The position numbers and the translations under genes are program-made. Below, piece by piece: positions 2,281 through 56,696 of a stretch of 64,000 bases of DNA; position 1 is the stretch's first letter, and every line of letters starts with the position of its first letter. The notes under the pieces are model-generated. The model was not told the DNA's origin. It saw nothing but the letters and a program-made list of their open reading frames with translations, and searched no databases. The stretch is from Cellvibrionaceae bacterium (lineage in GTDB: Bacteria > Pseudomonadota > Gammaproteobacteria > Pseudomonadales > Cellvibrionaceae). The stretch is from the NCBI GenBank assembly GCA_050300015.1, contig JBNKWZ010000008.1, positions 125,393 to 189,392 on the forward strand, in the 5' to 3' direction.

Positions 2281-2718
2281 TTGACTGTTCAACCCAATTT
2301 ACATTGTCAAAGTGACACCACAACCCTCTCTTGCGAGAGGGTTTTCTTTACAAAGCACCAACGCCTCCTTAAACCGAGTGAATTTCAAAACGTCTTTAAC
2401 GACGCGCCTTTTCGTGCCTCCAACCCTCAGATTCTCATCCTTGCTTGCCCCAGCTCTAGTAACACTGCACGCCTTGGGCTCGTGATTGCGAAAAAGCACG
2501 TTAAGCGAGCGGTTGATCGCAACCGAATCAAGCGAGTGGCACGAGAAACCTTTAGGCTCCAACAGCACAAACTGCCACCAATAGATGCTATAGTGCTGGC
2601 CCGTCGCGGGGCACACACACTGTCAACAGAGGAACTGGGGTCAATTTTCAACGGGTTATGGAGACGGGTTCGCAAGCGCGCTCAATCTGTCCTCAATCAA
2701 GAGTCAGTTGAACAATGA
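2281..2718 (+). CDS. rnpA: Ribonuclease P protein component (true start uncertain; probably downstream of the 2324-2350 hairpin)
   Basis: The translation ...[18 protein letters not shown]...[30 protein letters not shown] matches the RnpA RNR motif region. The gene lies immediately after rpmH and overlaps yidD by 4 bp. Confidence 0.8.
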
Positions 2719-2945
2719 CACCTATCCTCAAAGCAGTCATTAAAACCTACCAGTACTTACTCAGTCCTTGGCTAGGCAACCACTGTCGTTTTACCCCCTC
2801 GTGCTCACATTACGCGCTAGAAGCGCTAGACCAACATGGCTCAGCTAAGGGTTCTTGGTTAACTGTGTGTCGACTGTGTAAATGCCACCCTTGGCACACT
2901 GGCGGTTATGACCCCGTACCCGACACAAAACACTGCAAACATTAA
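2715..2945 (+). CDS. yidD: Membrane protein insertion efficiency factor YidD
   Basis: 76 aa with cysteine-rich motifs TPSCSHYA and [13 protein letters not shown]. Canonical position between rnpA and yidC. Confidence 0.88.
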
Positions 2946-2964
2946 ATAATTGGTAACTCTATAA

Positions 2965-4650: not shown

Positions 4651-6002
4651 TGTACGCAACGAATGAGACCATTGCTGCCATTGCCACAGCACCAGGGCGT
4701 GGCAGCGTGGGTATTGTTCGAATATCCGGCCCTCATACTGCAGCCATCGCACAATTGCTTTTGGGGTTTTCTCCCACACCTCGCCAGGCACACTACACCG
4801 ATTTTTATAATTCCGAAGGGCTTTCCATCGATAAAGGTTTGGCACTCTATTTTAAAGGGCCAAAATCCTTCACTGGAGAGGATGTGTTAGAGCTACAAGG
4901 CCATGGTGGCCCCGTAGTGTTAGATATGCTACTCACCACGGTATTACAACACGGCGCCCGGTTGGCTAAGCCGGGAGAGTTTTCTGAGCGTGCGTTCTTA
5001 AACGACAAGATGGACTTGGCACAAGCCGAGGCCATTGCAGATTTAATTAATGCCTCATCTGAGCAAGCAGCCAAACAGGCCATGGCTTCGTTACAAGGCG
5101 CTTTCTCCCAAAAAATTGATGCCTTACTACAACAGTTAATTCAGTTACGGATGTATGTTGAATCTGCCATTGATTTCCCCGAAGAAGAAATTGATTTTTT
5201 ATCGGACCAAAACATTCACCAAACCTTGCAACAAGTGATTGAGGCAGCACAATCGGTTTTGTCACAGGCCAAGCAAGGTAGCCTGATTAGGGACGGCATG
5301 AAGGTGGTGATTGCAGGACGCCCCAACGCTGGAAAATCCAGTTTATTAAATGCTTTATCTGACAAAAATGTTGCCATTGTCACGGACATTGCAGGCACCA
5401 CACGTGATGTTCTACGCGAACACATTCATATCGATGGTATGCCGTTACACATTGTGGATACCGCAGGTTTACGTGACAGCTCTGATCGGGTGGAAAGCAT
5501 TGGCATTGAGCGCGCATGGGAAGAAATCCACAAGGCAGACCGCATATTACTTATACTCGACAGCACGGATCCAACACAACTGAACGCACAATCACACTGG
5601 CCTGAGTTCTTTAACCACCCAGAACTCGTTCAAAAACTGACGCTGCTCTATAACAAGGTCGACATCCACCCTGTCGAACAAAGCCCCTCTGACGCGGCAA
5701 TCGCCATCAGCGCAAAAACGGGCCAAGGCCTGGACACCCTAAAACACCACCTAAAAGACGTTATGGGCTTTGCCACCACCACAGAAGGTGGATTCAGTGC
5801 CAGAAGACGCCACCTGAGTGCCATACAAACGGCCTTGCGATGCTTAGAGGATGGGCACACGCAACTGGCGGATCACCAAGCAGGTGAATTATTGGCAGAA
5901 GATCTACGAGCTGCTCAAAATGCTCTGAGCGAAGTCACCGGTGCGTTCACACCCGACGATTTACTGGGTGAAATCTTCTCCAGCTTTTGTATTGGCAAAT
6001 AA
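4650..6002 (+). CDS. mnmE: tRNA modification GTPase MnmE (TrmE)
   Basis: 450 aa with an N-terminal [21 protein letters not shown]-domain motifs [14 protein letters not shown] and DTAGLR, and C-terminal CIGK. Confidence 0.95.
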
Positions 6003-6160
6003 CACCACATTCTTCTCATTTCCTACTGCGTTACCAACAAGTCAAGCCTAGACCAACCCCCTCCACCAAAACACCTCTATTACACACTTACTCACACATT
6101 GCAGGCAACTTACCCACACTCACCCCACACCCTTACCAACACCCATCACAAAACGCCAAG

Positions 6161-10605: not shown

Positions 10606-11520
10606 ATGACCAAACCTAAACGAAAAGGCCTGGGGCGCGGATTGGATGCCCTGTTAAGTACAAATTCTAGTCTTAATGCACCTCAAGGTGCTAATCACGC
10701 TGATGCCTCCTCACTTGACACCAAACCTAAAGATGGGATTTTGGCCGATTTGCCCATAGAGTTTTTGCAACGAGGAAAGTACCAGCCGAGAACCGATATG
10801 CAACAGGAATCCCTACAAGAGTTGGCGGATTCCATTAAAGCCCAAGGGGTGATGCAGCCGATTGTCGTGAGGCCGATCGGTGATCAAAAATACGAAATCA
10901 TTGCCGGTGAACGCCGTTGGCGAGCGAGCCAGTTGGCGGGACTTGATAAAATTCCTGCGGTGATTCGCGATGTGCCCGATGAGGCTGCCATTGCAATGGC
11001 GTTGATTGAAAATATTCAGCGTGAAGACCTGAATCCGGTTGAAGAGGCAGTGGCTTTAAAACGCTTACAGGAAGAATTTGAACTCACGCATCAGGAAGTG
11101 GCCACCGCTGTGGGTAAATCGCGTACTGCCGTGTCAAACACTTTACGCTTGTTAAATTTGTGCGCAGAAGTTCGCACCTTACTTGAGCATGGCGATATTG
11201 AAATGGGGCATGCACGGTCACTGTTAACTTTAGAGACGCAAGCCCAAAAATATTTGGCGAACACCGTTGTGGCCAAATCCCTATCAGTCCGTCAGACCGA
11301 GGCCTTGGTACGAAAATATCAAGCAGAAGAAAATAAACCCAAGCAAGCGCCGGTAAAAGAAAACGCCGATATCACCAAATTACAGGATGCCCTCTCAGAT
11401 AAAATTGGCGTACCCGTGATGGTGCAGCATTCTGCAAAGGGGTCGGGCAAGTTGGTTTTGAAATACAGTAACCTCGACGAGTTGGATGGTATTTTAAACC
11501 ACATGGGTTATGAGGCTTAA
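10606..11520 (+). CDS. parB: Chromosome partitioning protein ParB (Spo0J)
   Basis: 304 aa with ParB box IIAGERRWRAS and a helix-turn-helix region. Confidence 0.92.
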   Translation: MTKPKRKGLGRGLDALLSTNSSLNAPQGANHADASSLDTKPKDGILADLPIEFLQRGKYQPRTDMQQESLQELADSIKAQGVMQPIVVRPIGDQKYEIIAGERRWRASQLAGLDKIPAVIRDVPDEAAIAMALIENIQREDLNPVEEAVALKRLQEEFELTHQEVATAVGKSRTAVSNTLRLLNLCAEVRTLLEHGDIEMGHARSLLTLETQAQKYLANTVVAKSLSVRQTEALVRKYQAEENKPKQAPVKENADITKLQDALSDKIGVPVMVQHSAKGSGKLVLKYSNLDELDGILNHMGYEA

Positions 11521-11753
11521 GGTCTCTTCTAAAAATACATTTTATTGTAATAGCGGCACAAGCCCGGTCATCGAATCCTTACAAATTGGCAGGATAGCCA
11601 ATTAGCTAAGCTCAGTTGCCCGCGGGGCGAATCACAAGGAAGTGATTCATGATTTGCCCCTTGTAAACTTCGGTTCTCGGAAACTGCTCCGTGCGGTGTT
11701 ACTGCTTTCACGAAGAAACTTCCATTTTTATAAGTGTCCTTAAATAAAATCTT

Positions 11754-12557
11754 CTAAAAGTCTTTGCTAATTTGTAAACCAATGGAATAGGTTTCTAATT
11801 CTGTGTGCGGATGAAAAAACACGGCATCCAGTGTTTGACCATTGCGTGCTAGCCATACTGGGCGGCTTTGTTCAATTTCAGTAAATTCATAAATCAAATT
11901 CAAACCCATCATCCAGTCGTAGGGAAGTCTTTTCCCGATATAGAGATGACTCATTAGTGTGTAGTCCATACCTAGGTGAACATCTGAATCATCATAGACC
12001 TCTTCAAAGTCTACGGTCATATGAGATCGAAATGCCATCTTGGCGTTGAATTCAAAATCCACGCGAAATTGGTCGGTGTGAATGATGACTTGTTTGAACC
12101 CTACAAACCCTTGTCGTTGGTCTAAGTATTCATTCAGAGTACCACTCAGGTTATTTGCGCCAATATAGCGGTCTCGAGTATTCGCTTGATACCCTAAATA
12201 CACCACCGTGGTGACAAAGGATTTTCCAAAGATGTAATGGTCACTTTCCAGCTTATAGAAAGTTTGGGTTTTTATGGGTTGGCCTAATTGAGAATAACCT
12301 AGGTAGTCGACTTGATCGTTACCGGTATAATGCCCGTATTCAAAATAGTACTGATTTTGTTTTTGATACCCAATACTAAACCCCATAGTGGGGATGATGC
12401 CGGATTCTTCGTTAATTGCGAAGCCTTCATTCCACTCCACAAAGTTCACATAGTTTAATTGATTGTTTAATTCCAAAAATAATCCGTCGTACGCTTGCGC
12501 GTATGTGGACCAAGCTAAAAAAAATATAAGCAGTATATAGGCTAAAGTCATCAACAC
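11754..12557 (-). CDS. Putative outer-membrane beta-barrel protein (MipA/OmpV-like)
   Basis: 267 aa with a signal peptide (LLIFFLAWSTYAQA), alternating aromatic beta-strand pattern and C-terminal Phe. AT-rich composition relative to neighbours. Confidence 0.55.
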   Translation of the reverse strand: MLMTLAYILLIFFLAWSTYAQAYDGLFLELNNQLNYVNFVEWNEGFAINEESGIIPTMGFSIGYQKQNQYYFEYGHYTGNDQVDYLGYSQLGQPIKTQTFYKLESDHYIFGKSFVTTVVYLGYQANTRDRYIGANNLSGTLNEYLDQRQGFVGFKQVIIHTDQFRVDFEFNAKMAFRSHMTVDFEEVYDDSDVHLGMDYTLMSHLYIGKRLPYDWMMGLNLIYEFTEIEQSRPVWLARNGQTLDAVFFHPHTELETYSIGLQISKDF

Positions 12558-12588
12558 ACCAAACCTATTTCAAGAACCTGTGCGGCAC

Positions 12589-13614
12589 TTACAAAGCATC
12601 TACTGACAATTGACGTAGTGCCAAGTCGTACCACGTAGTGTACTGAACTTCATCAATAATATTATCTGCGCCATAATCCAAAAGTAGTTTGACGCTAGTG
12701 CCATCCAAAATATCAATAATCAAATTATCTGAACCACCATTGACTTTGATTACGCCAGAAACGGGTACGGAATAACCCACGCCCTGTAGAGGTTTGAGTG
12801 TTTCATACTCGATTAAGGTATCATTAAGAGTGAAGTCCACAAACTTTGAAACCATGTTGATTTGGTATTCCCCGGTTTGTGAATTGACCCACTTATGGGA
12901 TTGGAACTCGAGTGTTTGATAGGAAGTATCAGCTGCGTAATAAAGATCCTGTGCATAAATATCGGTATAAATGGTAATGCCATCTTGACTTTCCACTTGA
13001 TAATTCAATTGGCCGTTAATAACAAAAGGCAAAAAACCACTAAATGTGATGGCGAGTTGATTGACCTTAACTTGGCTGGTTATATTGTAGTTTTGCATGG
13101 TAAGCAACTGGTTTAACGCGGCATTAAACTCAATATCTAAAACGCCGTTGAGCGCCATATACCCTTGATTGCAATGACTGAATGAGGTGTTAAACGTCAT
13201 AGCCAAGGTTTCGTCAAAATTGATTTGAATGTTTTGGCCAGTACTGGTTAAGGAGGCCGCTACACCTACGTCACCATCATATAAACATTTAACGGGTAGC
13301 ATGGTGATCACCACGCCGGTGGCCATATCTACAATTTGTTGGTTTTGCTCGCGTATAATCGCTACGTTGGTATCCACTGCGGTAGTGCTAAAGTCGCTTA
13401 ACAAAACAGCCTTTAATGTGCTGCTAGCAACAGCATTGAAGTTTTCGCTGTTAAGTGAAATGGGCGATAAATTTTTACTGTTGGTTTTGTTGTAAACTTG
13501 TGTAATAGGTGTGGAGGTTGAGGCCACCTTTTTGGGCGCGCTCTGCTCACAAGCGCCAAGCAATACGATGTATGTGACGATAAACCCATAATGGATTAGC
13601 TGCGTAATACTCAT
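12589..13614 (-). CDS. Putative lipoprotein, N/Q/T/S-rich
   Basis: Start ATG at 13614 is preceded by GGAGAAAGG. Lipobox LLGAC, then a low-complexity polar beta-rich sequence. The track ORF extends to 13734, but the internal Met with an RBS is preferred. Confidence 0.6.
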   Translation of the reverse strand: MSITQLIHYGFIVTYIVLLGACEQSAPKKVASTSTPITQVYNKTNSKNLSPISLNSENFNAVASSTLKAVLLSDFSTTAVDTNVAIIREQNQQIVDMATGVVITMLPVKCLYDGDVGVAASLTSTGQNIQINFDETLAMTFNTSFSHCNQGYMALNGVLDIEFNAALNQLLTMQNYNITSQVKVNQLAITFSGFLPFVINGQLNYQVESQDGITIYTDIYAQDLYYAADTSYQTLEFQSHKWVNSQTGEYQINMVSKFVDFTLNDTLIEYETLKPLQGVGYSVPVSGVIKVNGGSDNLIIDILDGTSVKLLLDYGADNIIDEVQYTTWYDLALRQLSVDAL

Positions 13615-44784: not shown

Positions 44785-46101
44785 CTAGTGTTTTAGAAAT
44801 TTAGACAAAAAGCCGCGCTTGGGCTCGAACAAAAATCGATGCGCATCCTGCACCAAGGTTTGGGGTACAGCCTGCACCGGCAAGCCGCGTTTAATCATCA
44901 GTTTAGAGGAGGATTCATCGCCTCGACGGGCCAAGTCTAAGTCTACAATTCTGAATTCGGTATAGGGCTTCCCTGAGCGTCTAATCAGTGGAATTACTGA
45001 GGCTTGAATCCGCTTTTCATAGCTGTTTTCCACCACCATGGCCACGGTGCCATTGCTAATTTGTACCACACTGCCTGTGGGATAAATGCCAATGGCTTGC
45101 ACAAAAGCTTCCACCAGAGGCGCATCAAACAATTGGCCCTTCAGTTTGTTGAGGCGAGATATCGCTTGCGCCGGGGATAGGGCGTGCTGGTTAAAAGGGT
45201 GCACCAGGTATTCAAAGGTATCTACCAGCCCCACGATGCGCGCGTGAAATGGAATGTTATTGCTTGCCAAGCGATTGGGGTAACCGCTGCCGTCGTGTCG
45301 TTCACAGTAATGCTTTAGGGTGTTGATGACATCCTTACAGGAAAAATGCTCCTGCTCCAGTTGGTACGTGATTTCACTTAGGTGCTCACGATAGGCTTCA
45401 GAATGCTGCAATACGTTGTGCGATTTGAGCGTCTTGTCGCTCAAGGTGCTTTTGCCAATGCCAGTGAGCATTTGTGCCAAGCTCACATGCAACAGAGAAA
45501 ACCGGTTTAAGCCCAACTGCCTGCCCACTATCCCCGCCCACACCGCAGAGCGCACCATATGCAAGAGTACGGGCTTGCGGGTTTGCATGATTTGACACAC
45601 CCAAGCCAGGGCGTCGGGGTTACGAATGATGCTTTCCATCAGATCTGAAGTGCACTCCACCAATGGCTCAAGGTGCAGGGATTGGTGTCCAGCAACACGT
45701 TGATGCAACAAGGTGACCTGGTGCTCAACTAGGGCGATCAACGGGGTAACCTGTTTGAGTTCGTCGGTCATCTTTGAGCTGACCGAGTAGTGCTCAACGC
45801 AGTGACGTCGTTTCCATTTAGAGGGTTCGATAAACAGTGGCGATGTCTTGGGGCTGACAATACGGGCTACAGGTGGCTTATGTCGTTTGGCTGTGGACAG
45901 GGGGGCTCTGCGTGAACGACGCTGATCCACATACACGGTCTGGCAAAATCGTGTGAGGGTATCGATATCCTTTTGGCTTTCGATGGCAAGCCCTTGCAGG
46001 GGAAATGGGGTGTCCGACCAGGGGCGATCCAAGCGCGAGATGTACATACCCACTTCCAGGGCGCTCACTGAGACCGCCTTTTCTACCAGTTCCATGCTCA
46101 T
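44785..46101 (-). CDS. HD-GYP domain protein with degenerate HD dyad (TG instead of HD), N-terminal DUF3391-like
   Basis: GYP motif HYCERHDGSGYPNRL is present. The upstream metal-binding position reads AQMLTGIGK where HD-GYP phosphodiesterases have LLHDIGK. Confidence 0.8.
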   Translation of the reverse strand: MSMELVEKAVSVSALEVGMYISRLDRPWSDTPFPLQGLAIESQKDIDTLTRFCQTVYVDQRRSRRAPLSTAKRHKPPVARIVSPKTSPLFIEPSKWKRRHCVEHYSVSSKMTDELKQVTPLIALVEHQVTLLHQRVAGHQSLHLEPLVECTSDLMESIIRNPDALAWVCQIMQTRKPVLLHMVRSAVWAGIVGRQLGLNRFSLLHVSLAQMLTGIGKSTLSDKTLKSHNVLQHSEAYREHLSEITYQLEQEHFSCKDVINTLKHYCERHDGSGYPNRLASNNIPFHARIVGLVDTFEYLVHPFNQHALSPAQAISRLNKLKGQLFDAPLVEAFVQAIGIYPTGSVVQISNGTVAMVVENSYEKRIQASVIPLIRRSGKPYTEFRIVDLDLARRGDESSSKLMIKRGLPVQAVPQTLVQDAHRFLFEPKRGFLSKFLKH

Positions 46102-46259
46102 GGTTCCGCGCTCACTTTGCTTTACTACCGGGGTCGCCTGACAATTTTTGTCAAAAATGTACTTAAAGCGTAGAGGGTGTAAAAGTAAAAGACAATGAAA
46201 GAAAAGGCGTTAAGCAATATTCGAATCAACGCATAAAATTTAGATTTAAACGTTCTAAA

Positions 46260-46946
46260 TCAGATAGATAGGGGCAGAGAAGTTGGCATAGATTTGTGGT
46301 CCAGCCAGTCAATCAGCGGCTCCCAGGCGTCTATATCATCTTTTGTGCGGTTGCTTTTTAACTCGTGGATGCCGAGCCCTAAATCAGAGGCTTTTACATA
46401 TTGAGTGGTGTCTCTGAGGGTTGTGATAAAGGGGATGCCCAAAGAATCCAAAAAGCGACACAGGCGGTGATAGACCAAAGCGTTTTTGCGTACACGGTTG
46501 GCTACTACGGCAATACGCTCTCGCCGTTTGTGTTGCTTGGCCACGAGTAGCAGGTCGGCAATACAGTGTGAGGCGGCGTGAATGTCGATGTCCGAAGGCA
46601 ATACCGGGATCAGAATGGCATCGGCTTTGTCCAGCATATGCGAAAACCCCGTTAAATCCAGGCCTGCGGGAGAGTCCACCACCACATTTTGGGTGTCGGG
46701 CTCGGCCCTTAAAAACCAACTGCGGGTGACACTGTGGGTATGTTTATAGGCGGGAATAGATTGAATCGGCGGCAAATGGCTGGCGCGTTTGCTCAACCAA
46801 AAGGTGGCCGAACCTTGGCCATCATAATCGATCAATGCCGTTTTTCGGCCTTGCTGAGCATAATAGGCGGCTAAATTGGTGGCCAGGGTGGTTTTGCCGG
46901 AGCCACCTTTGGAGTTCAACACAACAACACGTTTTGGGTCAGACAT
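46260..46946 (-). CDS. Orphan ParA/MinD-family ATPase (no cognate ParB adjacent)
   Basis: Start at the internal MSDPKRVVVLNSKGGSGKTT (deviant Walker A). The track ORF extends further upstream but would collide with the divergent neighbour. Confidence 0.78.
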   Translation of the reverse strand: MSDPKRVVVLNSKGGSGKTTLATNLAAYYAQQGRKTALIDYDGQGSATFWLSKRASHLPPIQSIPAYKHTHSVTRSWFLRAEPDTQNVVVDSPAGLDLTGFSHMLDKADAILIPVLPSDIDIHAASHCIADLLLVAKQHKRRERIAVVANRVRKNALVYHRLCRFLDSLGIPFITTLRDTTQYVKASDLGLGIHELKSNRTKDDIDAWEPLIDWLDHKSMPTSLPLSI

Positions 46947-47077
46947 AGCGGTACAACTTTTGATTCTCCGTAGTGTGAGTATAGAAGCTCCCATGAGGCG
47001 TGCAGGGCAATATAGCGATTGCCTCATCACGGGTTTCGGCGTATACCGACGTTTTTTAACAGAGGTGAGCAACGACT

Positions 47078-47761
47078 ATGTGCGCTGTAGGCTTGACGTT
47101 GATAAAGGGTCACCAGGGCAGTGGTGGTGATGACGAAGACACGCTCTTCAACGCGATTGCTGCGAGCATCCGTACAAAAGGCTATGCGGTGTTACCGGGC
47201 GTACTGCCCGCACAGGTGACCGATAATTTAATGGAAACGCTCGCGCGTACACACGAGGCTTCGTTTAATCAAGCCGGTGTTGGGCGCGGCGAACAGCAGC
47301 TGTTAAACCCTTTTATTCGCCGCGATAAGATCCATTGGATCGACCCTGTATCTGCCAATGCCCAAGATTGGTTGGCGTGGACTGCGCGCTTGCAAGTGGC
47401 GCTCAATCGGAGCCTGTTGTTGGGGTTATTTTCGTTCGAGAGTCATTTCGCCATTTATGAACCTGGCGACTTTTATCAAAAACACGTGGATGCCTTTAAA
47501 GGGGCGAGTAACCGTGTGCTGTCTATTGTTACCTACCTCAATCGCGATTGGGAGCCCAACCAAGGTGGTGAATTGGTGTTGTACCACCCTTCGACAGACG
47601 ATGTGCTCACTAAAGTCACTCCGGCATTTGGTACAGTTGTGGTGTTTCTCAGTGAAGAATTTCCCCATGAGGTGTTGGCGGCGAACCGCACGCGTTATAG
47701 TGTGGCAGGGTGGTTTCGCGTCAATACCTCCCTTCCGTACCGAGTGGACCCGCCAAGATAG
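47078..47761 (+). CDS. 2OG-Fe(II) oxygenase, prolyl-4-hydroxylase-like
   Basis: HVDAF...NRVLSIVTYLNRDWEPNQGGELVLY...H gives the HxD...H facial triad pattern of P4H/PhyH-like enzymes. Confidence 0.7.
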   Translation: MCAVGLTLIKGHQGSGGDDEDTLFNAIAASIRTKGYAVLPGVLPAQVTDNLMETLARTHEASFNQAGVGRGEQQLLNPFIRRDKIHWIDPVSANAQDWLAWTARLQVALNRSLLLGLFSFESHFAIYEPGDFYQKHVDAFKGASNRVLSIVTYLNRDWEPNQGGELVLYHPSTDDVLTKVTPAFGTVVVFLSEEFPHEVLAANRTRYSVAGWFRVNTSLPYRVDPPR

Positions 47762-47825
47762 TGCTTGAGTTGTCGCATCCATCACCGGTTATACACAGAC
47801 ACAAGAGGAGCCACCCGGCAACGCT

Positions 47826-48647
47826 TTGAAGTTTATAACGTTACGCGGATTAGAACTCGCTTACTGCGATGAAGGTACGGGTACGCCCGTGGTCATGGTG
47901 CATTGCTCCAGTGGCAATCACCGCATGTGGTTGCCCTACCAGGTGCAAAATCAACATCGCTTAGTGGCACCGGATTTCTATGGTTATGGGCAATCGGAGA
48001 TTTTTGATGCGGCGCATGCTGTCGATGGTGATGTGGACATTGAGTTTGTGAAGGCATTGGTGAATAAATTGGAATCGCCAGTGCATATTGTTGGGCACTC
48101 CTACGGCGGTGCTGTGGTTCTGGAGGTTATGCGTCGGTTTGCCGAGCAGGCGCCTCAAAAAATCAAAAGTGCGTGCTTAATCGAGCCGGTGGCGTTTCAC
48201 CTGCTTCGGGAAGATGCCCACTCACAAAATGAGTGGCAAGTCACATCCAGTTTAGGCGAACGTTTTATTCACGACTGTGGGCTTGGTAAAACACAAAGAG
48301 CCAGCCGAATGTACATGCAATTTTGGATTGGTCGTGTAGGCTGGTGGCTAATGGGTCGTCACAATCAACAAAAAATAGCCAGTACTGCACGAAAAGTCGC
48401 GCTAGAGTTTCGTATGGCTTGGGCCGATGACTTAAAGCCTGAGCAACATGGTGTGATTCAAACACCAACGCTATTATTATACGGTGCGAATACCCCTCGC
48501 CCGGCAAAGCGAATGATCGAATTATTGTACCGATACTTACCGGTCAGCCAAGTTTCAGAGATTCCCAAGGCGGGCCACCTTTGCCCCATAACACATGTGA
48601 ACGACGTCAAGGCACAGTTGCAGGCGCATTGGCAAGCGCACGCTTAA
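47826..48647 (+). CDS. Alpha/beta-fold hydrolase
   Basis: Nucleophile elbow VGHSYGG and N-terminal HGxP-like VVMVHCSSGN. Confidence 0.8.
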   Translation: MKFITLRGLELAYCDEGTGTPVVMVHCSSGNHRMWLPYQVQNQHRLVAPDFYGYGQSEIFDAAHAVDGDVDIEFVKALVNKLESPVHIVGHSYGGAVVLEVMRRFAEQAPQKIKSACLIEPVAFHLLREDAHSQNEWQVTSSLGERFIHDCGLGKTQRASRMYMQFWIGRVGWWLMGRHNQQKIASTARKVALEFRMAWADDLKPEQHGVIQTPTLLLYGANTPRPAKRMIELLYRYLPVSQVSEIPKAGHLCPITHVNDVKAQLQAHWQAHA

Positions 48648-48773
48648 AAAGCGCTTGTTCTTGCCCTAAAGATAATTAAAAAGTTTTGAACCATTGAAAC
48701 ACTAGCCAATTCGCACAGTGGCGCCAGTGTTTTAAGGGCGGTGATCAAAAAGGTAAGGAGGAGCTATTTGATC

Positions 48774-48811
48774 ACCGGGTTAATATCCCCCTGAGTTACC
48801 TAAACCCGGTG
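48774..48811. repeat. Degenerate mini-copy of the MITE-like repeat (hairpin CACCGGGTT...AACCCGGTG containing GGGTTAATA / TAAACCC)
   Basis: Shares the GGGTTAAT TIR core. Overlaps the stop codon of the minus-strand gene ending at 48796. Confidence 0.4.
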
Positions 48812-49962
48812 AGGTCGGAACCAAGCACGGCTTCTTGGTCCACAAAAATGCCGCTTTGCCGAAGGGTTGGCAGTATAACTTCATCGGTATAGACACAACC
48901 GGTGGTCTCGGGGTCCACTTGGAATTCCTTCCCGCAGGTTGTGTGACCATGACCTTCGCCGCGCTCTACCATGGTAAGTAATGGACGATAGCCTGCCTGC
49001 CAAGCCACTAAGGCTGTAAAACTTTGGCGCAGATTTTTTAAAATGGCACATCCGGCAAAATCCAAATCTCCCCAAAAATGGGTGGGCCAATCTTCGTGAC
49101 TGCGTTCAAACCACCAGTTTTGAAATTGTTTCACCGACGCCAGATGCTGGCCGCCACTTAAAATCGCAAACGCTGCATTGCCCTGATCGCGCACGCGTGG
49201 CGCGCTACCAGAAAAACCTGCGCTGTATACCAGTGCAGTATGAGAGGGGTTCAAATTGTTGAGTAGGTGAAAAGTGTCTTGATTTTCCACAAATAGGACG
49301 CTTTCAATGTGCTCGGGCAATGTTATATTCAGAAGGATTGGACGTGGGGTGACCAGGTGACTAATGCTGGGATAGAGGGTCTGAATCAAACCTTCACGAC
49401 GATCTAAAAATTTCGAATCCCCCCAAAAGCATCGAGCAGACAAGGCGCGTAAACTCATGGGTTTGCGTAGTTCGCTGCCAATTTTTGCAAAGCCTTTCAA
49501 AATATGTTCTGGGGATTTATGTGAAACACGAATAGTCTCTGCCAAAGCCTCACCAAAATCTTCAAACTGGTGCGACATCTTTTGTAAGGACTTTTCCCAT
49601 AATAAAGCATAGGGATCGAGGCGAGGGCGGTTTAACCACTCGCGAACCAAGGCTTCTTTTTCTGGAACAAAATTAACGTGCGCGCCTTCATACGGTGGTT
49701 GGTAGGGCTTGGTGGGCACGAGCTTAATTGAAAGAATATGATATTCCTTGTCTAGCGCTTTGATTAAGGCCCAGAGGTATGCGGGGTCGTAGTCGAGGGT
49801 GTTGTAAAGCTCCGGTAAGTTTTTGCTGGAGATTCGTATACTTAAGCGCTCGATTTGTTCGACCTTATCTAAAAATCGTGAGAGTAAATTTTGCAGGATG
49901 GGTTCTTCATCGAGCCAGTGAGGGCGGCGGGGAAACACATCGGGTTTGGGTTCTGCCATCAT
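48796..49962 (-). CDS. Orphan Toprim-like protein resembling Wadjet JetD / DUF3322-DUF2220
   Basis: C-terminal half has a Toprim-like acidic pattern VLFVENQDTF ... FWGDLDFAGCAIL (E ... DxD). 388 aa with no TM. No jetABC/SMC genes nearby. Confidence 0.5.
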   Translation of the reverse strand: MMAEPKPDVFPRRPHWLDEEPILQNLLSRFLDKVEQIERLSIRISSKNLPELYNTLDYDPAYLWALIKALDKEYHILSIKLVPTKPYQPPYEGAHVNFVPEKEALVREWLNRPRLDPYALLWEKSLQKMSHQFEDFGEALAETIRVSHKSPEHILKGFAKIGSELRKPMSLRALSARCFWGDSKFLDRREGLIQTLYPSISHLVTPRPILLNITLPEHIESVLFVENQDTFHLLNNLNPSHTALVYSAGFSGSAPRVRDQGNAAFAILSGGQHLASVKQFQNWWFERSHEDWPTHFWGDLDFAGCAILKNLRQSFTALVAWQAGYRPLLTMVERGEGHGHTTCGKEFQVDPETTGCVYTDEVILPTLRQSGIFVDQEAVLGSDLTGFR

Positions 49963-50557
49963 AAGAACGCTCCTTATGGTTTACGCATCGGGCAAGGCCC
50001 CGGCGGCGCTTGGTTGGCTGCAATGTGCGCGCCACCGTTACCAAAAACCGCGTCGTTTGGCAGCGGGCCAAGCGCTTCGTGTCTTTCCCAGACCGGTTGC
50101 GCCTTATGGTCGGCTCAAGCGGCACTGATCTGTACAAGACCATAGCCTCATACGTTTGACTCCTAAGGTCAAGTAATATTCCCTCATAGTCTGCGCCGAC
50201 TTACGGGGCATTTGACTTTAAAATGGCACACAATGTGAGCCCTGTGTGGTCAAAAGCGCACCCCCGAATTTTTATCACCAGCCCACTCCGTGAAACATGG
50301 ATGTAAAAGTAAGCGTCCGGTGCCATTGTTGGGGGTTGGGTCAGTAACGTTTGGTAGCGCATTGAACCCATTCGTATATTGCTACATTTGCCTCAACGGC
50401 TTTTAAAGTGCGCTCGAACTTGGGAGGAGGCTTTATTTCCCAAGGAATTGTCTAGGGGCTTTTACGCCTTCAGCTAGGTTAAAATCGCCCTTTGGCGTGT
50501 AGAACTGATTACCATCTTCACGCCCTCTAAAGTGTTTTGGCAAGGCGTCTGATGACT

Positions 50558-51262
50558 CTAGGCCGCGGTGGCCTCCAGGTAGCCCCAGCCCAATGACCTG
50601 CCGCCTTCATCAACTTGCATCACAATGGGAGTGCCCGTTGGAATTTCAAAAGCTTCCACCTGACGCTCGCTCATACCACCCAACGCCATAATCAGGGCTC
50701 GTAAGGTATTGCCGTGCGCGGCAATCAGTAGCCTTTGTTCGTTTTGCAGCTGCGGTATAACGGATGTTTGCCAAAAATCCACAACACGGTTGCGTGTATC
50801 GGCCAAGCTCTCTACAGCAGGTAATAGGTGTTCGGGTAGGTCTTTAAACTGCTCAGAAAACCTGGGATGTCGAGGGTCTGTTAAGCTTAGGGCCGGCGCG
50901 GTATCTCGGTACCCTCTGCGCCACCGCCATACTTGTTTCTCACCCACCTTTTCGATCAACGCCTGTTTGCTTTCTCCCTGCAATGCCCCGTAATGACGTT
51001 CGTTAAGGCGCCAATCTGAAATCATTGTAGCGGTGTTTTGCCCTAGGGACCCCAAAATAATCCGCGCCGTGAGCATGGCCCTTTGCAGGCGAGAACTAAA
51101 GGTTTGGTCAAAATAGAAGCCCCGTTCGCGCAGCAGTCTTCCGGCGCGCTCAGCCTCTGCCATGCCTTGTGACGTAAGCGGCGGATTTGCCCAGCCAGTA
51201 AAGCGGCCCTCGGCATTCCAGGTACTTTGAGCGTGTCGAATCAATACCACATTGTGTGTTTT
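50558..51262 (-). CDS. gpmA: 2,3-bisphosphoglycerate-dependent phosphoglycerate mutase
   Basis: Start at the internal MKTHNVVLIRHAQSTWNAEGRFTGW (catalytic RHG-type His). C-terminal HGNTLRAL motif. Confidence 0.9.
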   Translation of the reverse strand, partial: KTHNVVLIRHAQSTWNAEGRFTGWANPPLTSQGMAEAERAGRLLRERGFYFDQTFSSRLQRAMLTARIILGSLGQNTATMISDWRLNERHYGALQGESKQALIEKVGEKQVWRWRRGYRDTAPALSLTDPRHPRFSEQFKDLPEHLLPAVESLADTRNRVVDFWQTSVIPQLQNEQRLLIAAHGNTLRALIMALGGMSERQVEAFEIPTGTPIVMQVDEGGRSLGWGYLEATAA

Positions 51263-51266
51263 CATA

Positions 51267-51470
51267 TTAAGCCTCCAAGGTTTGGGCTGAGGGCGTATTG
51301 GACTGGACATTGCCTGTCCAGAATTTCTCGTGAAACCAATAGGCCACGGTGTTTACGGTGGGCTCGACGATGGCCACCAGGCCTCCCACCAAAAGATCGC
51401 CCGTGAGTAACCAGGCCACACTGAAGGCAATGGAAAAATGCATACAAGCAAAGGAAACGGTCTTTTTCAT
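51267..51470 (-). CDS. DUF2061-like small membrane protein
   Basis: 67 aa with two TM segments. Four bp upstream of gpmA on the same strand. Confidence 0.55.
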   Translation of the reverse strand: MKKTVSFACMHFSIAFSVAWLLTGDLLVGGLVAIVEPTVNTVAYWFHEKFWTGNVQSNTPSAQTLEA

Positions 51471-51507
51471 GGTTTTTAACAGCCTTTTCGTAATGTCATG
51501 CTTTCAG

Positions 51508-51526
51508 TGTAATGAGAATCATTATC
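51508..51526. promoter_or_regulatory. Fur box candidate TGTAATGAGAATCATTATC (16/19 match to GATAATGATAATCATTATC)
   Basis: Seen in sequence 38 bp upstream of the DUF2061-gpmA start. gpmA is Fur-regulated in E. coli. Confidence 0.55.
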
Positions 51527-51815
51527 ATATTAAAATTAATTAAAAACATAAATTTAATAAACAATTACTATCGTGATGGGTGGCCAACACCCGCCAGGGC
51601 CAATGCAGACAGACGTCTTTCGGTGGGTTTAAAGCGACGGTTAAACCTTTCTCTAGATCCGTGTTACAGGTTTTCGGCAGGTCGATGACACGCAGGGGGG
51701 TGACGCTTATTGATGACAAATGTCATGTGAAAGGGGTGACTTTTGACAATGGTGGGTTCACACGTGAAAAACAACAATGGCGGTGTTGTTAAATAAACCC
51801 AAAGGAGCAATAGCC

Positions 51816-52019
51816 ATGAAAGCCATGTCGAATTTAATCGAAACCTTCAGTAAAAGTTGTTTACTTATTCTGGTCTTCGCAAGTTTGATGGTTTCGGCCC
51901 ATCAAGCCAGTGCCGAGGTGGGCGGATCAAACCGTGCCGTCACTGAAGCCATGAGTAAACTCTACGCAACCTCGCGCGTTGAAGCTGCAAAAATCGCCAG
52001 AGAAAAGGGTTGGCTTTAA
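51816..52019 (+). CDS. Small secreted protein (67 aa) with signal peptide
   Basis: Strong SD AAGGAG 8 nt upstream of the ATG. Signal peptide LLILVFASLMVSAHQASA. Confidence 0.5.
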   Translation: MKAMSNLIETFSKSCLLILVFASLMVSAHQASAEVGGSNRAVTEAMSKLYATSRVEAAKIAREKGWL

Positions 52020-52064
52020 AGGTTGAGTTTCCTCACTTCACCCCCCTACTAAAGCTGGGATGCC

Positions 52065-52502
52065 CTAAGGTTTTTTGTAGTGATCACACATAAGCCGAAT
52101 GCTTTCTGCGGGCACGGATAACTGTTTGATTAAATAGTTTTTAAAAGTCTCGGGGTATTCCAAATCGGTAAGGGCTTTTTCCATACACAGTAACCAGGCG
52201 TCTCTGCCTGCCGTGTCTATGGGCAAGTGACAGTGGGCTCTCGGAATACTGATAGGCCCGAAATGCTCACGGTATAACTTGGGACCACCCATCCAACCCG
52301 ACAGGAAAAAAGCCAATTTTTTTCGCGACAGTGTTAAATCTTTGGGGTGCATATCACGTATAGTCTTGGCTTCTGGTAGTTGATCCATACGTTGATAAAA
52401 TGCATCGACCAAACATGTAATACCGTCCAATTCGCCCGCCGCGCGATAGGTGGCGTCGCCCTGACCGTATTCGTTGAATGTGTTGAGGTTGCTGGGGCTC
52501 AT
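52065..52502 (-). CDS. Group II truncated hemoglobin (trHbO-like)
   Basis: FYQRM...GGPKLY...PRAHCHLPI...RDAWLLCMEKAL matches trHbO landmarks (FYAQV...GGPRTY...RDAWLRCM). Confidence 0.7.
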   Translation of the reverse strand: MSPSNLNTFNEYGQGDATYRAAGELDGITCLVDAFYQRMDQLPEAKTIRDMHPKDLTLSRKKLAFFLSGWMGGPKLYREHFGPISIPRAHCHLPIDTAGRDAWLLCMEKALTDLEYPETFKNYLIKQLSVPAESIRLMCDHYKKP

Positions 52503-52699
52503 AAGGTTTCCGAAATCAAAAATCGAGTGGGGCTGTTGTGGCGCTCCTGATAAATCAGCGCCAGTATTTTTAGGGCGTGTAATAAAACCAATAGGAAATC
52601 TATTTTATTGCTAGAAAACCTCAGATTAATAAGTTACTAATTTAAGCGTCTTCAAATTAAGTGCCTTCAAAAATTTAAAGAGGCGATCCGGTGTTTAAC

Positions 52700-54007
52700 T
52701 TATGCCAACACATTTGCCAGCCAACCGATAAATCCCCCCGCTAAAATAACCCAAGGGATGGAGATTTTAAACCGAACCAGTGCAATAAAGGCCGCCAGCG
52801 CCAGGAACCCCTCCAACCAATGGTTGCCGGTGTCGAACCACAAAACGGCCGAGGCAAAATACACGCACAAGTGTACGATCACACCCACCACCGCACAGGT
52901 AACCGCGGCGAGCGGCGCCTGCCATTGACTGAGGTTTTGGGTGCGTTGAATCCAAGGTGCACCGGCCAAAATCCACAAAAAGCAGGGCAAGAAGGTATAC
53001 CAAGCCACCCAAATGGCGCCTAAGGTGCCAGCCCATAAGGGTGCGGTTTCGGCAAGTGGTGCTTGGTGGTAAGCACCCAAATAACCTACAAATACCGTCA
53101 CCATAATCAGCGGGCCGGGTGTGGTTTCGCCTAAAGCCAGGCCGTCCATCATTTGCGCGGCACTTAACCATTGGTATTGTGTGGCGGCGTGATCCGCTAT
53201 ATAGGGTAACACCGCGTAGGCACCACCAAAGGTCACCATGGCGGCTTTGGTAAAAAAAATTGCCATGGTCATAAACGGTGTGCTGGAATCAAACGTGGCC
53301 CAAAGTGCCGCCAGGGGCAACAGCCAAAGCCCAAGGCACAACAGCAGGACTTTAATGCTAAACCACAGCAAAGTGCGGCTTGGCTCGGGGGTGGTTTCAC
53401 CCTGTGCCTGTGCAGTGGGCGGCGGCAGTGGCCACCAGCGCGGCTGCCAACGATGTAAGAGCCAACCGGTGAGTGCCGCAATCGCAATCACTAAGGGATA
53501 GGGCAGATGCAAAACGGCCAAGGCCCCGCCTGCGGCGATGGCAATGCCATAAGCGGCGGGTGTATTCAGTACGCGACGCCCTAAACGCCAGGCCGCAAAA
53601 GCCACAATGGCGACAACGGTAGGTTTAATCCCGGCGAGCACAAAAGCCAACGTGTCCCACTCGACGTAGGTGACGTACACACCGCAAAAGCCGATAAACA
53701 AAAGCAGCGCCGGTAACACAAACAAAACCCCAGCGATCACGCCCCCTAGGGTTTTGTGTAATATCCAACCTAAATAAATGGCCAGTTGTTGTGCTTCGGG
53801 GCCGGGCAATAACATGCAATAATTGAGAGCGCGAATAAATTGCGCATCACTGACCCACTTTTTATTGTCCACCAACTCCTGGTGCATAATGGCTATTTGA
53901 CCGGCGGGACCCCCAAAACTGATGCACCCCAATTTGGCCCAAAACCAAAAGGCTTCGAGCATTGTCGGTGCGCAAGGTGTTGCGGCGTCGGTGCGGGCAT
54001 GGGCCAT
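52700..54007 (-). CDS. chrA: Chromate transporter ChrA
   Basis: 435 aa with duplicated CHR domains. FGGPAGQIAIMHQELV and a second FGGAYAVLPYI. Confidence 0.88.
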   Translation of the reverse strand: MAHARTDAATPCAPTMLEAFWFWAKLGCISFGGPAGQIAIMHQELVDNKKWVSDAQFIRALNYCMLLPGPEAQQLAIYLGWILHKTLGGVIAGVLFVLPALLLFIGFCGVYVTYVEWDTLAFVLAGIKPTVVAIVAFAAWRLGRRVLNTPAAYGIAIAAGGALAVLHLPYPLVIAIAALTGWLLHRWQPRWWPLPPPTAQAQGETTPEPSRTLLWFSIKVLLLCLGLWLLPLAALWATFDSSTPFMTMAIFFTKAAMVTFGGAYAVLPYIADHAATQYQWLSAAQMMDGLALGETTPGPLIMVTVFVGYLGAYHQAPLAETAPLWAGTLGAIWVAWYTFLPCFLWILAGAPWIQRTQNLSQWQAPLAAVTCAVVGVIVHLCVYFASAVLWFDTGNHWLEGFLALAAFIALVRFKISIPWVILAGGFIGWLANVLA

Positions 54008-54089
54008 AAGGCTCCCCTGTCAATTCATTCAGGCAGTATCACACGGGGTTGCGTTTCTCTAAGCCATTTTACTTTAAGGCTACAGGCGG

Positions 54090-54446
54090 CTAAGCGTTCT
54101 CTGGCGCAATGGGTGTAGACTGAATGGCGTGTTGAATATTGGATAATTGGGTTTCGAGATTTTTCAGTTCGCGCAATAAAGACAAGCGATGCATTTCAAG
54201 CAATAGCCAGATTCGCAACACCAACATTACCAACAACGTGGCAAGCGCACCAACTGCCCAATGGAGTTTATCGGCCATAACCGGGGTATTGAACATTTGC
54301 CAGGCACAAAAAAGCGCAAGACTGCCAAAAACGAGGGCCGCTATTACCACAACAGGCGCGACCCAGCGAAAAGTGCGCGAAGCGAAACTTCGCAACATTA
54401 ATTGAAAGGGGTTTAAAGACGCTTCGTCGTATTTGGAATTTTGCAT
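54090..54446 (-). CDS. Hypothetical small membrane protein (2 TM)
   Basis: 118 aa with two hydrophobic helices and a C-terminal coiled-coil-like segment. No recognised motif. Confidence 0.4.
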   Translation of the reverse strand: MQNSKYDEASLNPFQLMLRSFASRTFRWVAPVVVIAALVFGSLALFCAWQMFNTPVMADKLHWAVGALATLLVMLVLRIWLLLEMHRLSLLRELKNLETQLSNIQHAIQSTPIAPENA

Positions 54447-54618
54447 GGGGAGTACCTTTTGATCTAACGGTACCAGGCAGCATGCAGGGTTAAAGTCACG
54501 GATTCAATACCAGCATATTAAATCATCTACCCCTATTCGGTTTTCTTGGCGAACTGTTTCACTATTAAAGCGGCGCACCATGATCGGTGCGCCGATGACG
54601 ATCAACATCTTTATTAGC

Positions 54619-55557
54619 TCAAATGCAGGTGACGCAAACCGCTTCGATATGACGGTGGTCCGTGCCGCAACAACCACCGTAAATTCGCAGATTTTTTAAT
54701 AGACTTTTTAGCTTCAAGTAATCCAAGCCTAGAGCCTTGGGGTTGCCCTCGTCTAACACCTCGGCTTCATCCAGCTCTTGATGACTGCACTGCGAGGCGT
54801 TCGCACGAATGGCAAAAATTCGTTGCGTCCAAGGTGCATTGCCATCGAGTAGGGCTTGAAAATGCGTGGGGTGCGCGCAGTTGACCATGTAGTACGCCGG
54901 GTAGGCTTGCGTGTCCTCGTCCACCGCTTCGATGGCGCTTTGTAAGGTCTCTCCCGTGGGCAAGCGCCCGTCGGTTTCCACAGTAAAAGACAAACACACG
55001 GGCATATTGGCGCGCTTCGCGGCACGTGCAATGCCAATGCCTTCTTCAATGGTATTGAGCGTCATGGCGCACACCATATCGGCAGCTGTTGTCGCAAAAC
55101 TTTGAATTTGTGGCAAATGGTAATCACAGGCTTCACGGGCGGTCATTTGGTGGTTAGGCACGTATCCATCACCGCGTGGGCCGATATTGCCGCTGATGAC
55201 CATGGGAAAGGTTGCATTGGCATGTTGTGCACGCAGCTTTTCAATCTCTGCTACGGCCTGAAGGTTTACACGATGCAGGGCTTCGGCGTCATACCCAAGC
55301 TTTTGGCCCCAGTCTGGGTTCGCCCGCCAGGTGGGGGTCTCTAGAATCATGCCGGCACCATGACGTTTGGCAATGTCGATATAGGGCTGCCAGTAATCCA
55401 TTAGCGCCTGCCTTCCTTGCTCGGTTGCCAATAATGTAAATGCGGCAAAACTCGGTAAATCCATTTTACGATGGAACACCAGTGTGGTTTCCATGCCACC
55501 ATCGGTAATAAAGGGCTGCTTCCCCAGTTGGGGTAAAGTGCTGCGGTATTGGCTCAT
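54619..55557 (-). CDS. mmuM: Homocysteine S-methyltransferase
   Basis: 312 aa with C-terminal zinc-binding GGCCGTDHRHI and N-terminal DGGMETTL. Confidence 0.85.
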   Translation of the reverse strand: MSQYRSTLPQLGKQPFITDGGMETTLVFHRKMDLPSFAAFTLLATEQGRQALMDYWQPYIDIAKRHGAGMILETPTWRANPDWGQKLGYDAEALHRVNLQAVAEIEKLRAQHANATFPMVISGNIGPRGDGYVPNHQMTAREACDYHLPQIQSFATTAADMVCAMTLNTIEEGIGIARAAKRANMPVCLSFTVETDGRLPTGETLQSAIEAVDEDTQAYPAYYMVNCAHPTHFQALLDGNAPWTQRIFAIRANASQCSHQELDEAEVLDEGNPKALGLDYLKLKSLLKNLRIYGGCCGTDHRHIEAVCVTCI

Positions 55558-55655
55558 GGTCTCTCTCCTTTTTGAGCATTAAACACAGGTATAAGGTAGA
55601 GCCAAAAGGGCTTTTGGGTTAAAGTCATTTCCGTTCAAAATGAGTCGAATCGGAC

Positions 55656-56696
55656 ATGGCGGCAAAAAACCCCCTGAATATTGCGCTATTGGTCACTGCA
55701 GAGTCCTCTGCTTCTACCCTCTTTGGTATGTATGACCTGTTTTGCTCGGTGGGCAGGGATTGGCCGCTGCTGACTGAAGGGGTAGCGGGTGAGAGTTTGG
55801 TGACCCCAACTTTAGTGTCTGACACCGGCAGAGGCTTTTATTCTACCAATGGGGTGTGGATTCAGCCGCAGGCCGCGTTTGCCAAGTGTGCGGATCCAGA
55901 TGTTATCTGCATTCCCGATTTATTGGTGGCCCCCAGTGAGACCATGATGGGGCGTTATGCGGGCGAATGTGACTGGCTGCAAACGCAGTTTACGCGGGGC
56001 GCCTACATTGCCACAGCGTGTACCGGTGCTTTGTTACTGGCCGAGGCAGGCCTATTGGCCGGTGAGGCCACTACCACCCATTGGGCCTATTGTGATGCCA
56101 TGCGTGCGCAGTACCGCAATGTTCAAGTTCATGGTGAACGTGCCATGGTGGTGGGCGGCGAGGGCCAGCGTTTATTGATGGCTGGGGGCGGTACGTCGTG
56201 GATGGATTTGGCACTATTAATTGTTGCGCGTTTTATCAACGTTGAAGAGGCCATGCGCTTAGCACGGCTGTACTTGATTGATTGGCACCACTTAGGTCAA
56301 CAACCCTACACGGTGTTAACCGGTAGAAGTCAGACAGAGGACGCCTTAATGGCCGAATGCCAAGTTTGGGCGGCGCAACACTATGAGCAGGAATCCCCCG
56401 TAGCCAAAATGGCGGCCATCAGTGGGTTAACGGATCGCACCTTTAATCGCCGTTTTGTCAAAGCCACTGGACTGACGCCCTTGGAGTATGTACACGCCTT
56501 AAGATTGGAGGAAGCCAAGCATCTACTGGAGACCACGGTGGATCCTGTTGAGGCCGTAGCCAATACCATTGGGTATGAAGATGCGGGTTTTTTCGGCCGC
56601 CTGTTTAAACGTAAGGTGGGTTTAAGCCCCGCACAGTATCGAAGGCGTTTTGGAGCGCTCCGGCAATCGCTCAACCTGTTGCCCTCATTGCGATAG
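55656..56696 (+). CDS. GlxA-family transcriptional regulator (DJ-1/PfpI domain + AraC HTH)
   Basis: N-terminal class I glutamine amidotransferase-like domain with conserved Cys (IATACTGALLLA). C-terminal AraC-type dual helix-turn-helix. Confidence 0.85.
   Translation: MAAKNPLNIALLVTAESSASTLFGMYDLFCSVGRDWPLLTEGVAGESLVTPTLVSDTGRGFYSTNGVWIQPQAAFAKCADPDVICIPDLLVAPSETMMGRYAGECDWLQTQFTRGAYIATACTGALLLAEAGLLAGEATTTHWAYCDAMRAQYRNVQVHGERAMVVGGEGQRLLMAGGGTSWMDLALLIVARFINVEEAMRLARLYLIDWHHLGQQPYTVLTGRSQTEDALMAECQVWAAQHYEQESPVAKMAAISGLTDRTFNRRFVKATGLTPLEYVHALRLEEAKHLLETTVDPVEAVANTIGYEDAGFFGRLFKRKVGLSPAQYRRRFGALRQSLNLLPSLR

Follow-up and report, generated by a model that had tools for sequence, protein, structure and literature searches.

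An intact and conserved jetD gene without neighbouring jetABC partners in a Cellvibrionaceae bacterium, and recurrence of this state in marine Gammaproteobacteria

JetD, the nuclease of the anti-plasmid Wadjet systems, is a dimer built of CAP and Toprim domains whose autoinhibition is lifted only once JetABC has extruded a circular DNA in full; when isolated, JetD and MksG alike cleave DNA without specificity if their concentration is high (PMC10586767, PMC10123090, 10.1101/2023.11.03.565488). In the E. coli protein, contact with the rest of the complex is made by the aCAP domain, which docks on the JetC head (10.1101/2023.11.03.565488). Current models thus picture JetD as an autoinhibited effector, meaningless without the loop-extruding JetABC sensor. 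Here we describe a jetD gene that stands alone on a 64,000-nucleotide stretch of DNA from a Cellvibrionaceae bacterium (assembly GCA_050300015.1, contig JBNKWZ010000008.1, positions 125,393 to 189,392; the whole stretch is called the window below). The gene is intact, is kept under strong purifying selection in two species and has solitary counterparts in several other lineages. In the literature that we searched, conserved solitary jetD genes are not described.

Of the readings considered, we favour one, at about even odds: the window JetD would be a Wadjet effector that has outlived its structural maintenance of chromosomes (SMC) motor and works without a cognate JetABC. The evidence on its identity, its selection, its relatives and the whereabouts of jetABC is given in this order, and competing explanations are considered where the respective data appear.

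Identity and fold of the window protein

The minus-strand open reading frame (ORF) at 48796-49962 encodes 388 amino acids followed by a stop codon. It begins with ATG, and AAGGAG is found 7 nt upstream. The features of the gene are listed below; omega denotes dN/dS, the ratio of nonsynonymous to synonymous divergence, and L004 and L090 are two assemblies of a second species introduced in the next section.

48796..49962, minus strand: jetD coding sequence, type I Wadjet JetD/MksG-family nuclease subunit (PADLOC, Pfam, Foldseek, dN/dS)
49348..49962, minus strand: N-terminal arm plus CAP ("aCAP"), residues ~1-205 (AlphaFold2, PADLOC; omega 0.085)
48799..49347, minus strand: C-terminal Toprim and conserved C-terminal motif block, residues ~206-388 (JetD_C, MksG alignment; omega 0.042)
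49273..49293, minus strand: VENQDTF, residues 224-230, with the predicted Toprim catalytic glutamate E226 and with D229 (aligns with MksG VENLD)
49051..49071, minus strand: GDLDFAG, residues 298-304, predicted Toprim DxD metal-binding pair D299 and D301 (aligns with MksG WGDLDLDG)
49970..49975, minus strand: putative ribosome-binding site AAGGAG (read from the sequence; AAGGGG in L004)
50150..50260, minus strand: conserved non-coding block, candidate promoter/operator (window/L004/L090 alignment)

An earlier reading of this DNA, made from the sequence only, had proposed a DUF3322/DUF2220 protein with the size and two-part layout of JetD and an acidic Toprim-like signature. The DUF2220 half of the family assignment was borne out, since JetD_C (PF09983, the former DUF2220) matches with 42.2 bits against a Pfam cut-off of 22 (E 7.3e-11), whereas DUF3322 gave no match to the 388-aa protein even at E <= 10. 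NCBIfam likewise returned no match. For the N-terminal half, recognition depends solely on its fold and on the full-length PADLOC model JetD1 (PDLC00527; 387 bits, E 2.4e-116), which aligns residues 12-380 with model positions 3-382 of 387, and family membership is unaffected by the missing DUF3322. The Toprim/DUF2220 relationship is thus present in two profiles, JetD_C and JetD1.

The expected size and layout were found in the predicted structure as well. An AlphaFold2 model computed from a family alignment of 25 sequences (predicted local distance difference test score, pLDDT, 89.1) displays two domains, an N-terminal arm/CAP and a C-terminal Toprim. The aCAP part is mostly helical and includes a winged-helix-like segment; its boundary with Toprim is an estimate taken from the model and the alignment. 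The best folds in the PDB, as ranked by Foldseek, belong to Corynebacterium glutamicum MksG (8b7f_A, E 9.8e-8) and Pseudomonas aeruginosa JetD (7til_B, E 1.1e-5). Both alignments span ~420 columns with a global template modelling (TM) score of only ~0.3, a low value that may be explained by the published flexible linker between arm/CAP and Toprim (10.1101/2023.11.03.565488). The Spo11 core complex 8urq appears further down the list with a probability of 0.84.

A sequence profile search of the PDB gave MksG as the sole match, a weak one, in which VENQD is aligned with VENLD and GDLD with GDLD. Substitutions E236A and D279A abolish cleavage by MksG (PMC10123090). In the alignment of 25 homologues, E226, N227 and D229 of VENQDTF as well as D299 and D301 of GDLDFAG are invariant. 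The acidic signature noticed earlier falls at residues 224-230 and 298-304. Judged from the JetD_C and PADLOC matches, the predicted fold and the Toprim motifs aligned with those of MksG, the window gene is a genuine, full-length type I JetD. The protein is apparently catalytically competent, and metal-dependent DNA cleavage is predicted from its conserved residues.

A solitary gene under purifying selection

JetA, JetB and JetC sequences from three related operons found nothing in the 64-kb window (tblastn, best E 0.14), and no remnants of jetABC were detected in it, the 596-bp gap upstream of jetD included. Among the ten immediate neighbours (44785-56696), none matched a Wadjet component in PADLOC, two of them giving weak or generic matches only. 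Downstream of jetD, the genes for an alpha/beta hydrolase and a 2-oxoglutarate/Fe(II) (2OG-Fe(II)) oxygenase run convergent to it on the other strand; a ParA/MinD-like ATPase and an HD_5/DUF3391 protein come next. On the upstream side, the 596-bp gap is followed by His_Phos_1, DUF2061, globin, chromate transporter and other genes. With no JetA, JetB or JetC in 64 kb and with His_Phos_1 as the upstream gene, the locus does not qualify as a Wadjet system, though its jetD is a Wadjet component. The sequence-only reading had seen the absence of jetA, jetB and jetC correctly and had named the hydrolase, the oxygenase, the ParA-like ATPase and a degenerate HD-GYP, the last of which profile annotation gives as HD_5/DUF3391. 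It had also allowed that jetABC might lie immediately outside in the same operon; this place is taken by His_Phos_1.

Further away, at 2965-26727, the window holds what appears to be an oriC-proximal gene set (yidC-like, mnmE, mnmG, rsmG, parA, parB, the F1Fo ATP synthase operon, glmU, glmS), named from ORF order and N-terminal sequences only. The window looks like core chromosome near oriC, not a mobile island.

The same arrangement is found in a second species. Its two assemblies, L004 (GCA_964351375.1) and L090 (GCA_030432895.1), carry JetDs that are 99.7% identical to each other and 92% identical in amino acids to that of the window. Here, too, jetD is solitary and shares its flanks with the window on both sides, His_Phos_1 upstream and the block of hydrolase, 2OG and ParA-like genes downstream. 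A 234-aa ORF without Pfam family (L004:1679-2383) lies between His_Phos_1 and jetD in L004 and is absent from the window, which lacks ~650 bp at the corresponding place (~50382-50622). Since both the solitary arrangement and the flanks are shared, the solitary state is older than the split of the two species.

Comparison of the window with L004 allowed selection on jetD to be estimated (Nei-Gojobori method). The dN/dS ratio is 0.063 at a dS of 0.59, and omega is lower in the Toprim half (0.042) than in the N-terminal part (0.085), with flanking genes at 0.09-0.16. In each of the three assemblies compared the gene has an uninterrupted frame, and the identical JetD protein is found on five NCBI contigs, up to 346 kb long. 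In 61 operonic JetDs, 60 positions reach a conservation of 93% or more; the window protein differs at just one of them (L363I) and keeps the other 59. None of the 16 solitary JetDs from the surveys described below departs from the family at E226, N227, D229, D299, D301 or the DQE motif (375-377).

These values bear on the idea that the gene is a functionless leftover of a degraded Wadjet operon in which disabling mutations have not yet accumulated. Wadjet loci do decay: in L088 (GCA_964399955.1) jetABC is followed by a jetD remnant of 95 aa (L088:9632-9919), in which residues ~14-50 are fused in frame to ~350-384 through an internal deletion, a case of Wadjet decay through loss of the nuclease core. 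In the window, moreover, jetABC is gone without trace. However, a neutrally drifting gene would not stay intact at a dS of 0.59 while keeping its catalytic and nearly all of its conserved residues, and the shared flanking synteny argues against two very recent independent losses of jetABC. Evidently, the window jetD is under strong purifying selection and is no decaying relic; the leftover explanation is largely refuted by the selection data and we consider it improbable. Solitary jetDs of other clades, treated in the next section, have also stayed intact, across dS values exceeding 1-2.

The dS of jetD itself deserves mention. At 0.59 it is far below that of the adjacent His_Phos_1 (2.3) and DUF2061 (1.0) genes in the same comparison; this may reflect constraint on codon usage, or the two lineages may have exchanged the jetD segment by recombination at a later date.

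Alignment of the window with L004 and L090 further revealed a block of ~110 bp (~50150-50260) within the 596-bp gap in which the two species hardly differ, its flanks diverging. The block contains short palindromes, one of the TTGACC...GGTCAA type (TTGACC-N5-GTCAA, ~50172-50156) and CACA-N3-TGTG (~50237-50227), which were read from the alignment only and were missed by the repeat finder. Rfam has no family in or around this upstream region. On the minus strand no significant sigma-70 consensus was present, and a scan for promoters and terminators performed no better than on shuffled sequences. The block may be the regulated promoter of jetD itself and is put forward as a candidate.

Recurrence of solitary jetD genes and the whereabouts of jetABC

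A protein search retrieved 419 JetD homologues. In addition, a genome collection was scanned with the family alignment, and the best 80 of 239 loci, among which the closest match to the window JetD reaches 56% identity, were examined for their genomic context; a scan of metagenomes found no closer relatives. Relatives at 52-56% identity (Teredinibacter purpureus, Marinimicrobium and uncultured Cellvibrionaceae) have jetD as the last gene of jetA-jetB-jetC-jetD operons, with JetA of 480-488 aa, JetB of 243-256 aa and JetC of 1212-1224 aa. In 60 of the 80 loci jetABC is directly upstream of jetD. One further locus, L009, was rejected as solitary because its operon is broken across two contigs, and five were unresolved. 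The remaining 14 loci, out of 75 resolvable ones, count as solitary: upstream of jetD, 3 kb or more of sequence was available, and the flanks retrieved held no jetABC.

On a neighbour-joining tree without support values, solitary jetDs fall in ~8 separate places. The window and L004 form one lineage, whose sister L010 is operonic. Two larger clades are a Saccharophagus-type one (L052, L072, L055 and L056) and one of four Gilvimarinus species (L022, L023, L025 and L026, the last on a closed chromosome); L064 and L075 and four singletons make up the other placements, and the metagenomes add one more lineage (L094/L095). All solitary JetDs are full length, with pairwise omega within clades of 0.05-0.14 versus 0.11-0.18 for operonic Gilvimarinus JetDs. 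Stranding of jetD without jetABC is therefore a recurrent event in marine Gammaproteobacteria.

Clustering of every ORF within 6 kb of solitary jetDs revealed no neighbour family common to separate solitary clades, neighbours being shared within clades only. The Saccharophagus-type context reads ftsX-rpoH-jetD-ROK kinase-DUF481 and the solitary Gilvimarinus context jetD-HTH-hipA-dehydrogenase (HTH, helix-turn-helix). By Pfam, they encode unrelated proteins of housekeeping or toxin-antitoxin function, and in some cases TonB receptors. Nor is there an SMC-sized ATPase within 10 kb of the solitary jetDs; the large ORFs in these regions are TonB receptors, AcrB pumps, sensor kinases and helicases. 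A HipB-like HTH/HipA pair directly downstream of jetD was observed in L110 (L110:377-8645) and in L022, L023, L025 and L026 (~11200-12800).

The sequence-only reading had suggested that jetD might be a stand-alone nuclease of a new defence or repair context. A multi-gene system formed by jetD with the genes around it, comprising the alpha/beta hydrolase, the 2OG-Fe oxygenase, the ParA-like ATPase and the HD-GYP-like protein, would agree with the syntenic hydrolase-2OG-ParA-like block beside jetD in L090 and with the match of the 2OG domain to a PADLOC "CAS-associated" model. The neighbourhood is indeed kept in the related species. This synteny is, however, confined to one genus-level lineage, the hydrolase and oxygenase genes converge on jetD from the opposite strand, and the PADLOC match is to a generic domain model. 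Independent solitary clades have entirely different neighbours (rpoH and ROK kinase, hipBA, TonB receptors) with no family shared among them. We find a system of this composition hardly credible.

In the Saccharophagus-type clade, an older one, omega is very low (0.05-0.06) and yet A94G, D350H, G355Q and R368E have become fixed and P14 and W16 have been lost, at sites at least 95% conserved in operonic JetDs. These replacements suggest a changed function rather than decay. They would mark the change in a more general picture, which we advance tentatively and at somewhat below an even chance: solitary JetDs represent a domesticated Wadjet nuclease, repeatedly kept after its SMC motor was lost for a cellular function independent of JetABC. 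Such a function could consist in DNA cleavage, stand-alone or under a different form of licensing, that serves defence, repair or the maintenance of chromosomes and plasmids.

How a solitary jetD arises can be followed in Gilvimarinus. In the operonic locus L110, jetABCD is succeeded by hipB and hipA, which are 79-80% and 66-69% identical to their counterparts beside the solitary Gilvimarinus jetD, and its JetD belongs to the sister group of the solitary Gilvimarinus JetDs. Comparison of jetABCD-hipBA with solitary jetD-hipBA, combined with the sister relationship, indicates that jetABC was deleted in place in these species while jetD was kept, the linkage of jetD with hipBA having survived.

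Alternatively, jetABC might be encoded elsewhere in the genomes concerned. The sequence-only reading had left a choice between a stand-alone nuclease and a JetABC located elsewhere. In the latter case, the system would be split: jetABC would reside at another chromosomal site, on a plasmid or on an unbinned contig, and JetD, still the canonical effector, would join JetC heads in trans once a circular plasmid had been loop-extruded. We searched the protein database, which includes seven assemblies of the window lineage, with a JetC profile built from eight related operons and examined the best 120 matches, reaching down to ~53% identity. JetC is more conserved than JetD in these operons, so that a cognate copy would be expected to share ~60% identity or more with the L010 protein. 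Among the best 120 matches, no JetC at or above 60% identity to that of L010 came from the window-lineage assemblies. The NCBI-sourced matches at 57% identity or more to the L010 protein all belong to other genomes, named or traced (L008, L010, L088, L089 and L110). From this indirect search of database matches, we infer that the window genome may well be devoid of jetABC. The same matches include JetC clusters with eight operon-bearing Gilvimarinus species or strains. For G. polysaccharolyticus, G. agarilyticus JEA5 and probably G. japonicus no JetC of the same clade is among the best 120, and their JetDs are in the database. Near-complete genomes of Gilvimarinus isolates thus possess JetD and, among these matches, no same-clade JetC, which, like the deletion in place by which jetD did not move away from its partners, speaks against a split system.

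The opposite half-system also exists. L091 (GCA_041156845.1, JetC 2501-6142) and L092 (GCA_053999595.1, JetC 2501-6145), both traced from JetC matches, have intact jetA-jetB-jetC with no jetD or jetD remnant downstream, where a molybdate-type ABC transporter (L091) or GGDEF/HopJ genes (L092) follow. Apparent JetD matches in these two loci were rejected: they overlap the 3' end of jetC and putatively stem from query ORFs extending upstream into jetC. No jetABC locus lacking jetD could be linked to a genome with a solitary jetD. The above-mentioned L088 was rejected as the missing half of the window system, as it comes from an unrelated organism rich in guanine and cytosine and its jetD is internally deleted. 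In the metagenomic operons L101 (JetC end 6608, JetD start 7986), L107 and L108, there is an insert of 1.4-3 kb between jetC and jetD or jetC is truncated; such loci may represent operons in the course of breaking up.

Several considerations weigh against JetABC-independent working of the window JetD and most of them favour a split system. The nuclease is reported to be autoinhibited and essentially inactive alone, and plasmid restriction needs all four subunits (10.1101/2023.11.03.565488; PMC10586767). It docks on JetC by way of aCAP, and the window protein gives no sign of altered constraint (omega 0.085 in aCAP, with 59 of the 60 conserved sites kept in the whole protein), as expected if a JetC-like head were still docked. 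Unaltered constraint of this kind fits a continued JetC-like partner and, equally well, intrinsic structural constraint. In Geobacillus, JetD supplied separately restores restriction (10.64898/2026.03.21.713436). The existence of L091 and L092 makes split systems conceivable. The best 120 JetC matches would miss a divergent type I JetC, a type II or III system and MksBEF. Finally, the window assembly is probably a metagenome-assembled genome (MAG), judging from an accession series shared with MAG records, and is probably incomplete; defence islands and plasmids are often omitted from MAG bins. Set against the JetC search and the Gilvimarinus data, these points leave a split Wadjet, in our opinion, a serious though rather unlikely explanation. 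Of the two options left by the sequence-only reading, the stand-alone nuclease is thus favoured by purifying selection, recurrence, the lack of a same-clade JetC among the matches examined and the Gilvimarinus deletion, with JetABC elsewhere retaining the lower probability just given.

Proposed working of the solitary JetD and comparison with known systems

The retention of a Wadjet effector after loss of its motor can be envisaged as follows. The jetABC partners would have been lost in an ancestor common to the window organism and at least one other species, and jetD, inherited vertically on the chromosome, would have been retained by purifying selection. Its product, a predicted dimer with CAP and Toprim domains and a relative of Topo VI-A and Spo11, would act as a metal-dependent endonuclease on double-stranded DNA, which it would bind and cleave by means of E226, D299 and D301. 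Cleavage would either proceed autonomously at low activity, as seen in vitro with isolated MksG, or depend on licensing by a non-cognate partner. Independence from JetABC, and with it the present substrate and role of the protein, we infer from the genomic pattern.

If this is true, JetD has an activity or role in vivo that is independent of SMC proteins, or it accepts non-cognate licensing; either would alter the view of how the effector is regulated. The window jetD is thereby a lead on whether a Wadjet effector functions, or is licensed, without its SMC sensor. It also has a practical side: system finders that require all four genes silently skip solitary jetD loci, which make up about one in five of the related loci sampled.

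With type I Wadjet JetDs (E. coli GF4-3, P. aeruginosa PA14, 7TIL) the window protein shares family, arm/CAP and Toprim fold, catalytic E and DxD residues and length. The locus differs from theirs by the absence of jetA, jetB and jetC in 64 kb, and by the position of jetD among vertically inherited housekeeping genes, behind an upstream region of its own that carries the conserved block.

C. glutamicum MksG (8B7F), the best structural match, is only ~14% identical in sequence. It is a dimer of the JetD family that cuts plasmid DNA in vitro without SMC subunits (PMC10123090), which is the activity proposed here for the window JetD. Unlike the latter, MksG is encoded together with mksBEF and needs these partners in vivo.

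The CAP and Toprim architecture is also common to JetD and topoisomerase VI subunit A/Spo11. The CAP domain of JetD, however, is devoid of the catalytic tyrosine of the topoisomerases (PMC10586767), and no gene for a B-subunit or ATPase partner is present at the window locus.

A precedent for the survival of half a Wadjet in a different role is P. aeruginosa MksBEF, a JetABCD derivative from which JetD has been lost (PMC10586767). The window is its reciprocal, with a motor lacking the nuclease there and a nuclease lacking the motor here. If our proposal holds, it would complement the story proposed for MksBEF, and both halves of Wadjet could be co-opted separately. The window protein is an ordinary member of its family; what is new is its conserved, recurrent and partner-less genomic state.

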